Positions 766 to 12,414 of a stretch of 64,000 nt of DNA are shown here, one piece after another. The notes under the pieces are model-generated. The model did no database searches. It was given only the letters and a program-made list of their open reading frames with translations, and had not been told where the DNA came from. Where the stretch lies: assembly GCA_038998585.1 (NCBI GenBank), contig JAVZGQ010000001.1:75737-139736 (forward strand). Direction: 5' to 3'. This stretch comes from Candidatus Aenigmatarchaeota archaeon. GTDB taxonomy: Archaea; Aenigmatarchaeota; Aenigmatarchaeia; CG10238-14; SCSR01. Position numbers and translations under genes: made by a program. Within the stretch, counting starts at the first letter, position 1. Each line of letters opens with the position of its first letter.

Positions 766-1260
766 ATGGACACAAAAGCCTTACTAGAAGCTGCCCTTTT
801 TGTTTCTGATAAGCCTTTGAGCATAGAAAGGCTCTCAAAAATTCTTGAAATAAACTCAGAAGAAATAAAGAAGCTTTTGATAAAAATTCAGACTGAATTG
901 CAACAGGAGACACATGGGATAGAATTAGTCGAGACACCAGAGGGGTTTGAGTTTAGAGTAAAGCAGGAGTACAGGGAAAAAATTGCTAAGCTCGCGCCTT
1001 TTGCCGACTTAAGTAATGGAATGATGCGTACGCTGGCCATAGTTGCAGCTAAGCAACCTATAAAACAATCAGTAATAGTAAAAGTTCAGGGAAATAAAGC
1101 CTACGGCTATATTACCGGCTTAGAAGAAAAAGGTTTGATAAGGAGCGAAAAATTTGGAAGGACAAAGCTCCTTTCAACCACTCCAGACTTTGAAAAATAT
1201 TTTGGCAAAAGCAGCGAAGAAATAAAAAGAATTTTGAATGAAGCTGAGAAAAAAAATTAA
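766..1260 (+). CDS. scpB: Segregation and condensation protein B (ScpB)
   Basis: The N-terminus LLEAALFVSDKPLSIERLSKIL and the tandem winged-helix layout are typical of ScpB. SMC and ScpA are encoded nearby. Confidence 0.8.
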   Translation: MDTKALLEAALFVSDKPLSIERLSKILEINSEEIKKLLIKIQTELQQETHGIELVETPEGFEFRVKQEYREKIAKLAPFADLSNGMMRTLAIVAAKQPIKQSVIVKVQGNKAYGYITGLEEKGLIRSEKFGRTKLLSTTPDFEKYFGKSSEEIKRILNEAEKKN

Positions 1261-8815: not shown

Positions 8816-9511
8816 TTATTCAGATTTTAGCCCCCTTTTTTTAATCCAAATCTCTTTGAAATAATCTTCTTGCTCAGTTTCAACTTTTCCATCATTCTCC
8901 AAATGCAACAAAGGCACAAATTTATCAACAATTTTCTTTCTTTCCCATCTCTTTACTATCTGACTAAACCCGATTCTATGACTGCTCATCTTTTTCATAA
9001 GCTCGTCTATTTCTTTTTCCATTTCTTCTATTTTTTTTGTTATATCATCTTCTGTTATTTGGAATTCAAGTCTCTCTTTCCATTTTCTCCTCCTTTCAAT
9101 TCTTCTCTCCCTAACAGCGATGGCTTTTCTCAAGGCCGAAATCAGTTCATTCAAGGTTATCTGCCTCTTAGGTATTCTTCTTAAAGGAACGCCGAGCTGA
9201 ATAAGATTAGGATCTATTCCCAAATCGATTGGTTGTTGTTGTGCGATTTGCTCTATTGTTTCTTCTTCCTCAAAAATTGAAAGGTAGTCTGCTTTAAGTC
9301 TAAGCAAAACAGCAGCAACAAAAACAACACGAGCAGGAATCCTAAAGTCGAGTCCTTCAATTTTTTTCAAATAATTCAAGAAACTGTCAGTAAGCTTAAT
9401 TAGATCTATATTCCAAGGGTCTAGCTTTTCTATGCTGACTATATGGTAAATTATCTCTTCCCAATTTTCCTTTTCAAGTACGAGTTGAAGAATGTTTTCC
9501 TCTTCTGTCAT
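8816..9511 (-). CDS. scpA: Segregation and condensation protein A (ScpA kleisin)
   Basis: LDPWNIDLIKLTDSFLNYL...RIPARVVFVAAVLLRLKADYL is typical of ScpA. The gene lies directly downstream of smc. Confidence 0.8.
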   Translation of the reverse strand: MTEEENILQLVLEKENWEEIIYHIVSIEKLDPWNIDLIKLTDSFLNYLKKIEGLDFRIPARVVFVAAVLLRLKADYLSIFEEEETIEQIAQQQPIDLGIDPNLIQLGVPLRRIPKRQITLNELISALRKAIAVRERRIERRRKWKERLEFQITEDDITKKIEEMEKEIDELMKKMSSHRIGFSQIVKRWERKKIVDKFVPLLHLENDGKVETEQEDYFKEIWIKKRGLKSE

Positions 9512-9553: not shown

Positions 9554-12043
9554 CTAAGTCCCTTTAGGCAACTCAATTCCTAAGATCTTTGTTTCTCCCT
9601 GATCCATCGTACAGCCATAAACCCTATCTCCATAGGTTATTGTGGTATCATTGTGTGTGATGACGATGAATTGAGCTTCTTTTGAAAGCATTTTAATCAA
9701 TTCAGCAATTTTCTTACTGTTTTCCTTGTCCAAAGCAGCGTCAACTTCGTCCAACACATAAAAAGGGGCTGGTCTGTACTCTTGGACAGCAAAAAGGAAG
9801 GCCAAAGCTGTCAAACTTTTTTCTCCACCAGACATGGCGTCTATATTCAAAAGCATCTTTCCACCAGGGTTTGCTTGAATTATCAATCCACTTTCAAGAT
9901 TATTTGGGTCTTCAAGCTCTACGCTTGCATTCCCACCAGTCATTCTGTTAAACATTTCATTAAACTTATTGCTCACTTCTTGCAAAGTCTTGAAGAACAC
10001 TTCCCTTCTCTTTTGTTCTATTTGGTCAATCATCTCAAGTACGGCCTTCTTTTCGGCCAATATTTTTTCATATTTTTGTTTGTATTCGTCGAACTCACTC
10101 TTAAACTTTTCATATTGTTCTATAGCTTTGAAGTTAACAGCACCTAAGCTTACAAGCTCATTTTGAGCTTGTCTTATTGAAATTTCCAAACTTCTGATAC
10201 TCTTCTCTATTGGTTTCACTTCACCATACTGTTGAGCTTCAACTTTTACAGTTTCCAGCTCAGCCTCTATCCTTGCTTTTTGAACAGAAAGTTTGTTCAG
10301 TTCAGTTTGGACTGCTAGCCTTTGTTCATAAGCTATCTTCCTTTTTTGTCTCAATGAGTCTAGCTCTTGCTCAGTATCAATTTTTATCTTCTCCAAATCA
10401 ATAAGCTCTTTGGTTTCCTCAGATTTTGAGAGCTCTTTCAACTTTTCTTCACACTCTCTAGTCTCCTTTTCAAAATTCTGAATCTCTTCTTTCAATTTTT
10501 CTTTCATCTTTTGATATTCTTCTATCTCAGCTTCTGTAGGTAAAATTTTTGCTGCCCTGAAATAGTAGCCCCCTATCATTGCTCCACTCCTCTCAGCCAA
10601 ATCTCCATCCAGGCTCACCATCCTGGCTCTCCCAATCCCAACTCTTCTCATTGATTCTAGATTATCAACTACAAGCGTGTTACCAAAAACAAACTCAATA
10701 GCAGGAGAAAATCTCTTATCAAACTCTATAAGATTGCTAGCAATTCCCAAAACACCCTTTTCTTTTAACAATTCCTTTTCTCCAAATTCTGCCGGCTTGA
10801 TTTTATTCAAAGGCAAGAAAGCAGCTCTACCAATTTTCTCCCTTTTCAAGAATTCTATACAATTTTTTGCTGTTTCATCAGAATCAACAACCAAATCATT
10901 TAAGTGAGGACCAGCAGCAACTTCTATAGAGTTTTGATATTTTTCTGAAATTTTTATCAAGCTAGAGACAGTGCCAAAAACTCCCTTCATCTTTAAATCA
11001 AGAATTGCCCTAACGGCTTTTGGTAAGACCTGATCACCTCTAGCTTCAATTTCTTTCAATCTTTGAATTAAAGAGTCAATTCTTTCAATCTCTTTTCTGT
11101 TTGACTCAATTTTATCTTTATTTATCAATATTTTCGTCCGCAAGTAAGAGATTTCCCTCTCAACCTCAACTTTCTTTGTTATTTGCACGAGCTTAGCAGC
11201 CACTTCCCTTATACTCTTTTCTCTTTTCTCAAGTTCTGTCTCTATACTTTCAATTTCCCTTTGAAGCAACTCATTTTCTTTCTCCTTTTTTCCAATTTCA
11301 ATTCCCAGTTCTTCCAATATTTTACCAAACTCTTGAATTTTCCTGTGAGCAAGTGAAGCTTTTAATAACTGTAGCTGGGCTTGAAGCTCTTGATACCTTA
11401 AAGCAGCATTCCTCTCCTCTTCCAGTCTTTTGAAAATGTCATATCTTTCAGTTATCACAATTTCGGCCTCTTTTAGCTTGGCATCAACTTCTGCTAAATC
11501 TTTCATAGCTTTTTCCTTCTTTTCATTATATTCGGCTATACCAGATATTTCATCAATTATTGACCTTCTTTCTATTGGGTTCATTTCTATCACATTTGTC
11601 ACATCACCTTGAAGCACTATATTGTGCCCATCTGGATAAATTCTTGCTGCGGCCAAAACTTCTAGGATTTTCTCTCTTGTCGTGTTCTTACCGTTAAGTT
11701 TATAGATTGAGACCCCTTTTCTGTTCACCTTTCTTGTTACAGAGATTTCTTTATCTTCAAATGGAAAGACTTTATCACCATTGTCAAAATAAAGTGTGAC
11801 AGAAGCAATTTCAGCTGGAGACTTTCCGTTGCCACCATGAAAGATGAGTTCGTGAAGTTTACCAGCTCTTAGAGATTTTACAGAAGTACTACCAAGAGCA
11901 AAGGCGATTGCATCAAGTAGGTTGCTTTTACCTGAACCATTGGGTCCACAAATTATTATGAGGCCTGGTAGAAAAGGTATTGCTATTTTTTTGTTGAAAC
12001 TTTTGAACCCCTGCAAAACAATCCTTGTGATATAAGTCTTCAT
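9554..12043 (-). CDS. smc: SMC chromosome-partition ATPase, unusually short (829 aa)
   Basis: Walker A is GPNGSGKSN. The hinge reads GVFGTVSSLIKISEKYQNSIEVAAG...GRAAFLPLN. The signature motif is LSGGEKSLTALAFLFA and Walker B is FYVLDEVDAALD. Confidence 0.85.
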   Translation of the reverse strand: MKTYITRIVLQGFKSFNKKIAIPFLPGLIIICGPNGSGKSNLLDAIAFALGSTSVKSLRAGKLHELIFHGGNGKSPAEIASVTLYFDNGDKVFPFEDKEISVTRKVNRKGVSIYKLNGKNTTREKILEVLAAARIYPDGHNIVLQGDVTNVIEMNPIERRSIIDEISGIAEYNEKKEKAMKDLAEVDAKLKEAEIVITERYDIFKRLEEERNAALRYQELQAQLQLLKASLAHRKIQEFGKILEELGIEIGKKEKENELLQREIESIETELEKREKSIREVAAKLVQITKKVEVEREISYLRTKILINKDKIESNRKEIERIDSLIQRLKEIEARGDQVLPKAVRAILDLKMKGVFGTVSSLIKISEKYQNSIEVAAGPHLNDLVVDSDETAKNCIEFLKREKIGRAAFLPLNKIKPAEFGEKELLKEKGVLGIASNLIEFDKRFSPAIEFVFGNTLVVDNLESMRRVGIGRARMVSLDGDLAERSGAMIGGYYFRAAKILPTEAEIEEYQKMKEKLKEEIQNFEKETRECEEKLKELSKSEETKELIDLEKIKIDTEQELDSLRQKRKIAYEQRLAVQTELNKLSVQKARIEAELETVKVEAQQYGEVKPIEKSIRSLEISIRQAQNELVSLGAVNFKAIEQYEKFKSEFDEYKQKYEKILAEKKAVLEMIDQIEQKRREVFFKTLQEVSNKFNEMFNRMTGGNASVELEDPNNLESGLIIQANPGGKMLLNIDAMSGGEKSLTALAFLFAVQEYRPAPFYVLDEVDAALDKENSKKIAELIKMLSKEAQFIVITHNDTTITYGDRVYGCTMDQGETKILGIELPKGT

Positions 12044-12213
12044 TTCTTCTTCACCTCAATTTCATGTTTTTCTATCAAAAGTCTTAGCCCTGCTCTTACT
12101 GCTTCGGCTTTAGTTGCATAAAGTCCGCTTTCGACTAAGCTGTCAAGAATTTCTAACAAAGCGCCATCAAATTTTATTGGAATTATTTTGGCCTTGTTCT
12201 TAAAATTGCCCAT
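12040..12213 (-). CDS. Small ribbon-helix-helix (CopG/Arc-like) protein, 57 aa
   Basis: Below the ORF-track cutoff. My translation is MGNFKNKAKIIPIKFDGALLEILDSLVESGLYATKAEAVRAGLRLLIEKHEIEVKKK. That gives a beta-strand followed by two helices with the RHH pattern. Its TGA overlaps the smc ATG (ATGA). Confidence 0.55.
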   Translation of the reverse strand: MGNFKNKAKIIPIKFDGALLEILDSLVESGLYATKAEAVRAGLRLLIEKHEIEVKKK

Positions 12214-12307: not shown

Positions 12308-12414
12308 TGGGCCCCGTGGGATTTGAACCCACGACCAGTCCCAGTGAGTCCATCACTACTGGTTAAGAGCTTCAACCTCTTGTCAGCTGCTCTACCATGC
12401 TGAGCTAGGGGCCC
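12308..12414 (-). tRNA. tRNA-Lys(CUU) with two short non-canonical introns (about 13 nt at 30/31 and about 20 nt at 43/44)
   Basis: Minus strand: GGGCCCC TA GCTC AGCATGGTA GAGC A GCTG[ACAAGAGGTTGAA]G CTCTTAA CCAGT[AGTGATGGACTCACTGGGAC]TGGTC GTGGG TTCAAAT CCCAC GGGGCCC A. Both inserts sit in bulge-helix-bulge-like folds. The spliced arm parallels the neighbouring tRNA-Lys(UUU). Confidence 0.75.

Follow-up and report, generated by a model that had tools for sequence, protein, structure and literature searches.

The window analysed here, a 64,000-nucleotide (nt) stretch from Candidatus Aenigmatarchaeota archaeon (GenBank assembly GCA_038998585.1, contig JAVZGQ010000001.1, positions 75,737 to 139,736 of the forward strand), encodes an archaeal-type Smc protein of 829 amino acids (aa) with coiled-coil arms of about half the canonical length, along with ScpA and ScpB, the other two subunits of the complex. 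An original prediction, made from the DNA alone, had singled out this gene as a naturally short SMC. The features of the locus are the following:

9554..12043, minus strand: smc, 829 aa (P0001), archaeal-type Smc with half-length arms (TIGR02169, SMC_N, SMC_hinge)
11540..12043, minus strand: N-terminal head half, residues 1-168, with Walker A at 33-41 and Q-loop Q145 (alignment to 1XEW_X, invariant motifs, AlphaFold 2 (AF2) model)
11021..11539, minus strand: N-terminal arm strand, residues 169-341 (AF2 helices 169-278 and 293-335; anchor span)
10568..11020, minus strand: hinge dimerisation domain, residues 342-492 (PF06470, 112.7 bits; alignment to 4RSJ and 3NWC; invariant glycines)
10130..10567, minus strand: C-terminal arm strand, residues 493-638 (AF2 helices 503-539, 552-606 and 616-633; anchor span)
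9554..10129, minus strand: C-terminal head half, residues 639-829 and stop codon, with SGGEKS at 738-743, Walker B at 761-768 and H797 (alignment to 5XEI)
8816..9511, minus strand: scpA, a kleisin of 231 aa, 42 nt downstream of smc (PF02616)
766..1260, plus strand: scpB, a kite subunit of 164 aa (PF04079, TIGR00281)

The smc gene is a single open frame, and its product passes the NCBIfam equivalog model of archaeal-type Smc, TIGR02169, with 778.6 bits (cut-off 729.4), as well as TIGR02168 with 603.2 bits (cut-off 567.35). Pfam SMC_N spans residues 4-817 (243.3 bits) and SMC_hinge (PF06470) spans residues 353-464. The closest solved structures are the head (5XEI, 5XNS, 4I99, 1XEW) and the hinge (4RSJ, 3NWC) of Pyrococcus Smc: residues 4-181 align with the head entry 1XEW_X, residues 622-827 with 5XEI, and residues 335-499 with the hinge entry 3NWC, in agreement with the original placement of a complete hinge at about 340-495. 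The head is complete as well, as had been claimed. It contains Walker A (GPNGSGKSN, residues 33-41, as read from the translation), the Q-loop glutamine Q145, the signature SGGEKS (738-743), Walker B (FYVLDEVD, 761-768) and the H-loop histidine H797; the pre-head motif VNFKAIEQYEKF occupies residues 636-647. The residue preceding the signature is M, so that the motif reads MSGGEKS and not LSGGEKS as first transcribed, a trivial slip.

All these ATPase motifs are invariant in an alignment of 67 homologues with 58-87% identity, and so are the hinge glycines G471, G480, G487, G491 and G492, which speaks against the relaxed constraint that the original prediction had named as a possible refutation. 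Column conservation in the same alignment is 81% in the heads and 61-70% in the arm strands. The canonical Smc proteins (TIGR02169/TIGR02168; Pyrococcus 5XEI, 4I99, 1XEW, 4RSJ and 3NWC; B. subtilis) have the same head with all ATPase motifs, the same hinge glycines, a joint-like interruption near the head, and the ScpA and ScpB partners. The adjacent ScpA matches PF02616 with 58.7 bits (cut-off 24.6), and ScpB matches PF04079 with 131.2 bits and TIGR00281 with 110.9 bits (cut-off 89.2), so that both of the partners initially proposed are supported, ScpB at the very coordinates given for it. The scpA gene lies directly 3' of smc in 11 of the 21 operons examined.

The feature that sets the protein apart is the length of its arms. 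Each strand was measured from one conserved residue to another (N strand, Y172 to P341; C strand, G492 to G634) in the query and in 142 cluster representatives obtained by an exhaustive HMMER search. The query strands are 169 aa (N) and 142 aa (C) long, close to the roughly 170 and 135 residues first estimated, and the medians for 29 short representatives are 166 and 142 aa. The corresponding medians for 74 canonical relatives are 336 and 309 aa, consistent with the earlier statement that canonical arms have about 300 or more residues; the shortfall thus amounts to about 170 aa on each strand. In the short set, the standard deviation of strand length is about 6 aa, and the lengths of the N and C strands co-vary (r = 0.72). 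The mean of the two strands is 155.5 aa in the query, with a median of 154.5 aa in the short set (n = 29) and 322.8 aa in the canonical one; among all 143 representatives, mean arm lengths fall at 140-165, 213-248 and 285-340 aa, and the gaps between these classes are empty. Such strands would form an arm of about 25 nm, as against about 47-50 nm for canonical Smc with its roughly 340 aa per strand, from which the query departs in a property that is typical of Smc but does not define it.

Smc proteins of about 940-975 aa, with arms of about 224-238 aa (N) and 202-211 aa (C), are represented by P0143, P0146 and P0164 and, among the matches listed, by Mollicutes- or Bacilli-labelled loci (L012-L018, L022) from metagenome-assembled genomes (MAGs). 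These genes probably belong to a natural arm mode of 238 aa and occupy at least three separate places in the tree. Another protein, P0218 (951 aa, on NCBI contigs of up to 666 kb), has arms of 151 and 137 aa and about 160 aa of extra sequence after the Walker A region; in the tree it falls provisionally outside the main short clade.

Current thinking holds that SMC arms are tuned in length by increments of about 90 residues, and in models of loop extrusion both the step size and the movement of DNA between head and hinge depend on the arm. A survey of 3,337 prokaryotic SMC sequences (Bürmann et al. 2017, Mol Cell 65:861, PMC5344682) describes natural arm modes at 238, 341 and 515 aa, “possibly” also at 163 and 423 aa, and a recurrence of B. 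subtilis Smc function with an arm period of about 91 aa. Comparison of our canonical median of 322.8 aa with the 341-aa mode of that survey gives a metric offset of about 12-18 aa, which puts the short clade at about 168-173 aa on the published scale. By this approximate conversion, the clade lies close to the “possible” 163-aa mode and probably belongs to it. The half-armed Smc is therefore less unprecedented than the original prediction implied. Its contention that arm length is tightly constrained has to be qualified, in view of the multimodal natural distribution described in PMC5344682. The text of the survey, in the portions available, does not name the organisms of the 163-aa mode, whereas here the class of about 160 aa is the fixed state of a whole phylum. 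Full-text searches for short-armed Smc in Aenigmatarchaeota or DPANN found nothing specific; as far as searched, the variant was anticipated statistically by the 2017 survey but has not been described as a lineage trait, with its arms mapped, or as a tested form.

In the phylum of the window, the hinge is present in 146 of the 151 sampled genomes, in Smc frames of about 795-878 aa or, with an intein, about 1350-1400 aa. A word-indexed search of NCBI, JGI, ENA and Logan retrieves more than 100 protein clusters of 820-840 aa with 57-90% identity, and those that carry an organism name are labelled Aenigmatarchaeota. Two apparent length outliers within the phylum (924 and 1020 aa) are frames that simply extend beyond the true start on its 5' side, and their arms are of typical length (170/147 and 162/145 aa). 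Inteins of about 530 aa, inserted after residue 38 in Walker A, were observed in seven of the 146 sampled Aenigmatarchaeota Smc genes, with resulting frames of 1320-1400 aa (about 5%; e.g., P0004, P0008, P0028, P0040 and others, in genomes G048, G077, G085, G070, G126, G022 and G135). Long-armed Smc proteins of other archaea contain an intein at the same Walker A site, in frames of 1650-1800 aa.

Phylogenetic trees were constructed from the heads and the hinge only, with the arm columns left out. The FastTree phylogeny groups 27 of the 29 short representatives in a single clade (local support 99%). In the IQ-TREE phylogeny (70 rows), the “short” state requires two changes, but a tree that unites all 29 short representatives is marginally better than the free tree (approximately unbiased test, p = 0.54). 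A single origin of the short arms is thus compatible with these sequence data, though not proven by them. The source labels in and near the short clade, unverified for the MAGs, are mostly Aenigmatarchaeota, with one Nanohaloarchaea, one “Heimdallarchaeota” and one Naiadarchaeales (Undinarchaeota) MAG.

Three rival explanations of these observations have to be considered. Coiled-coil DNA is repetitive in character, and the genome of the window is a 574-kb, 88% complete, MAG-like assembly of 13 contigs, so that an internal collapse of a normal smc gene of about 1170 aa could be suspected. However, the length is reproduced in 146 of 151 genomes that were assembled independently, which makes the suggested check of read coverage unnecessary, and in the more than 100 clusters from four sources described above, and matching losses on the two strands (173 and 169 aa) would need two coordinated collapses; the probability of an artefact is accordingly negligible, and the gene is a natural form, as was originally proposed. 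It is also very improbable that the actual condensin is encoded elsewhere and that the gene for the 829-aa protein, under relaxed constraint, is either decaying or a non-condensin paralogue (SMC5/6-like, ASRP, Rad50-like or coalescin-like). The incomplete genome does encode Rad50 and an ASRP-like protein of 664 aa, but the Smc query, which passes the Smc equivalog model, scores 42-86 bits against Rad50 models (cut-offs 700-1087) and 125 bits, through its C-terminal part only, against ASRP (NF045487, cut-off 300). Rad50/SbcC proteins have a zinc hook (CxxC) at the apex and Mre11 as the partner, and ASRP proteins are about 590 aa long and lack a hinge, whereas the query possesses a hinge, has no zinc hook and is encoded next to scpA. 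The invariance of its ATPase and hinge residues in 67 homologues and the tight conservation of arm length across a deep clade likewise argue against a paralogue or a decaying gene. A Pfam SMC_N search of this 88% complete genome yields no second full-length SMC above the cut-off; apart from Rad50 and the ASRP-like protein, the search returned a weak match in a 227-aa frame, and none of the three qualifies as a second Smc. A third possibility is that the short arms are a neutral by-product of genome reduction in DPANN archaea and are not adjusted to permitted lengths. Host genomes measure 0.4-1.9 Mb, and such lineages generally shed sequence. Nevertheless, in the phylum Nanoarchaeota, where the hinge is present in 78 of the 81 sampled genomes (0.5-2.1 Mb), complete and intein-free Smc frames are about 1143-1230 aa long. 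Consistent with this, among the matches listed, smc matches extend over about 3,450 nt in three Woesearchaeota/Nanoarchaeota loci and 3,273-3,333 nt in two Micrarchaeota loci, compared with 2,457 nt in one Aenigmatarchaeota locus. Equally small genomes thus keep a long Smc, so that the short arms require more than genome reduction as an explanation; given also the narrow range of lengths in the short clade and the empty gaps that separate it from the other classes, we consider this explanation improbable. In the comparison across related archaea that had been suggested as a check, Aenigmatarchaeota and Nanoarchaeota differ.

Taken together, the model matches, the invariant residues, the partners and the phylum-wide distribution lead us to conclude with high confidence that the 829-aa protein is the one true Smc of this organism, the ATPase core of Smc-ScpA-ScpB, in a form specific to the Aenigmatarchaeota lineage.

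Several further SMC-related genes were observed in these searches. The Rad50 gene of the same genome (1224 aa, contig 3, L009:1336-5010, plus strand) encodes a zinc hook, contains a LAGLIDADG intein in the P-loop region and directly follows Mre11. The gene for the ASRP-like protein (contig 11, L010:1820-3814, minus strand) scores 229 bits against the 300-bit cut-off. In Candidatus Hadarchaeum yellowstonense, L027:4007-6268 (plus strand) encodes an Smc of 753 aa with a full SMC_N match and no Pfam hinge match, followed by scpA.

AF2 models were compared for the short Smc (mean predicted local distance difference test score, pLDDT, of 80 on the 67-sequence alignment) and for a relative of 1178 aa (pLDDT 82). 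The model of the short Smc has a beta-rich head until about residue 168 and helical strands on either side of the hinge. The elements of the two models are:

N-strand helices: 169-278 and 293-335 in the short Smc; 167-211, 215-372 and 383-510 in the 1178-aa relative
Hinge: 342-491 in the short Smc; about 515-666 in the relative
C-strand helices: 503-539, 552-606, 616-633 and 639-702 in the short Smc; 677-795, 805-949, 965-979 and 988-1050 in the relative

The C strand of the short Smc contains a double break (607-615 and 634-638) near the conserved G634/N637 (G-x-x-N) motif, and the equivalent breaks in the relative (950-964 and 980-987) lie at the same distance from the head; this double break may well correspond to the known Smc “joint”. 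At the level of AF2 secondary structure, long helices flank the hinge on both sides and the breaks can be matched by their distance from the hinge. Each model also contains one paired outer break. In the short Smc it is at 279-292 and 540-551, in regions with pLDDT below 50, with some 110 aa between it and the head and some 45-50 aa between it and the hinge; in the relative, where it is at 373-382 and 796-804, these distances are roughly 206 and 130 aa.

Profile-profile dynamic programming, anchored at the head and the hinge and run with several gap-opening costs, places a single gap on each strand, directly beside the hinge, at every cost tried. In the numbering of the 1178-aa relative, these gaps are 341-513 (173 aa) on the N strand and 692-860 (169 aa) on the C strand; the C-strand optimum is flat across query residues 497-517, and an alternative gap at 672-841 is equally good and would pair exactly with that on the N strand. 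The hhalign program agrees on the N strand, whose colinearity it traces from the head to about residue 331. In the 67 close homologues, indels occur almost exclusively after residues 338 and 502, i.e., at the arm-hinge junctions, and none coincides with the AF2 breaks. A match of query residues 4-298 to 5XEI was rejected as proof of 130 aa of N-strand colinearity with Pyrococcus Smc, because the construct links the N and C parts near chain residue 250-257, so that N-strand residues of the query were aligned to C-strand coil.

These results moderately favour a single matched loss of the hinge-proximal (distal) half of the arm, corresponding to about 341-513 and about 672-860 of the canonical relative. 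The competing history consists of two losses of about 90 aa each, flanking a conserved mid-arm break. The distances of the paired breaks in the two models differ by 96 and 90 aa on the head side and by 85 and 82 aa on the hinge side, each value being near the 91-aa period given in the text of PMC5344682, and natural intermediate classes with mean arms of 213-248 aa do exist. This history is nonetheless less plausible, given that dynamic programming prefers one hinge-side gap on both strands even when gaps are cheap, that the N strand is colinear from the head to about residue 331, and that the low-confidence breaks of the short model are indel-free whereas indels pile up at the arm-hinge junctions. 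It stays a contender because coiled-coil alignment is degenerate, as the 5XEI match illustrates, and we regard it as a minority possibility.

The broader scenario of one matched deletion is that the hinge-proximal half of both strands, about two periods of ~91 aa including a mid-arm, “elbow-like” discontinuity, was lost in one ancient event at or before the base of Aenigmatarchaeota, and that an Smc-ScpAB of about 25 nm has served as the sole condensin since then. We advance it tentatively, with slightly less than even confidence; the deletion may be shared with some lineages labelled Undinarchaeota and Nanohaloarchaea. Several observations count against our reading of the half-armed Smc as a functional condensin shortened by a matched deletion. 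The sequence evidence for the site of the deletion is weak, the plateau of dynamic programming scores being shallow and coiled-coil alignments degenerate; part of the N strand was matched by HMMER to a C-strand segment of the 5XEI construct; and the AF2 break at 279-292/540-551, if homologous to 373-382/796-804 of the long relative, implies a loss of about 85-96 aa on either side of it. In addition, our anchors and those of the 2017 survey are an estimated 12-16 aa apart, so that the assignment to the 163-aa mode is approximate, and the shortening of 168-173 aa equals about 1.85 times 91 aa and not exactly two periods. The shortest functional arms reported for B. subtilis Smc in PMC5344682 are 253-267 aa, so that no model organism is known to function with an arm of about 160 aa. 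Finally, the 88% completeness of the genome leaves room for a second Smc.

The half-armed Smc has kept the heads, the kleisin-binding neck, the putative head-proximal “joint” and the hinge, while each of the two presumably antiparallel strands has lost about 170 residues, roughly two functional periods of ~91 aa. Most probably, one matched deletion took the hinge-proximal half, so that the hinge would now sit on a half-length arm; compared with canonical Smc, whose strands are about 170 aa longer and whose predicted arm is about twice as long, the query appears to be devoid of the distal half, including the mid-arm discontinuity of the long model. This architecture resembles that of the engineered Mini-Smc constructs, in which, according to PMC5344682, the hinge was grafted onto a shortened head-proximal arm. 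The complex would presumably work like ordinary Smc-ScpAB, with dimerisation through the hinge, ScpA bridging the neck and the cap, and ScpB bound to ScpA, and would be capable of ATP-driven DNA entrapment and loop extrusion. Function would survive because the shortening lands on a discrete permitted length, the ~163-aa mode of the 2017 survey; phase matching of the arms would then be part of the explanation.

If the scenario of one ancient deletion is correct, the distal half-arm and any folding at an elbow are dispensable for SMC function in vivo, and about 160 aa is a permitted arm length that the engineering of B. subtilis Smc missed. The clade would then also provide a minimal hinge-containing holo-complex, useful in structural studies and in tests of step size against arm length. 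Hundreds of natural sequences show that the class of about 160 aa, only “possible” in the 2017 survey and not recovered in the Bacillus screen, is viable, and a phylum with half-length arms offers a natural experiment on the amount of arm that an SMC motor requires. The retention of the neck and the joint, with the distal half gone, gives an indication of which parts of the arm are indispensable. A compact, full Smc-ScpAB (829, 231 and 164 aa) should also be easier to image whole than the 50-nm complex. The half-armed Smc fits the periodic-length model and overturns no principle.

Upstream of smc, the following open reading frame (ORF) is present:

12040..12213, minus strand: ribbon-helix-helix (RHH)-like ORF of 57 aa, the TGA stop codon of which overlaps the smc start codon (ATGA) (weak Pfam RHH matches)

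The Pfam RHH matches of this ORF are weak and all below the cut-offs. Close homologues of the protein adjoin smc solely within the same genus, and RHH-like ORFs overlap the smc start in two of the 20 other Aenigmatarchaeota operons sampled (L104 and L105). An AT-rich, TATA-like stretch is located just 5' of the ORF, which in this genus alone probably opens the operon. With such a patchy distribution, a role of the RHH protein as a clade-wide partner of smc was rejected. The other neighbours of smc in the window are unrelated, namely a subtilase of 1774 aa, NFACT-R, BacA and a wyosine radical-SAM enzyme. At 12308-12414 (minus strand), Rfam detects a 107-nt tRNA gene (44.9 bits) that ARAGORN missed; it contains additional sequence within the anticodon region and close to the variable region, which probably represents introns.

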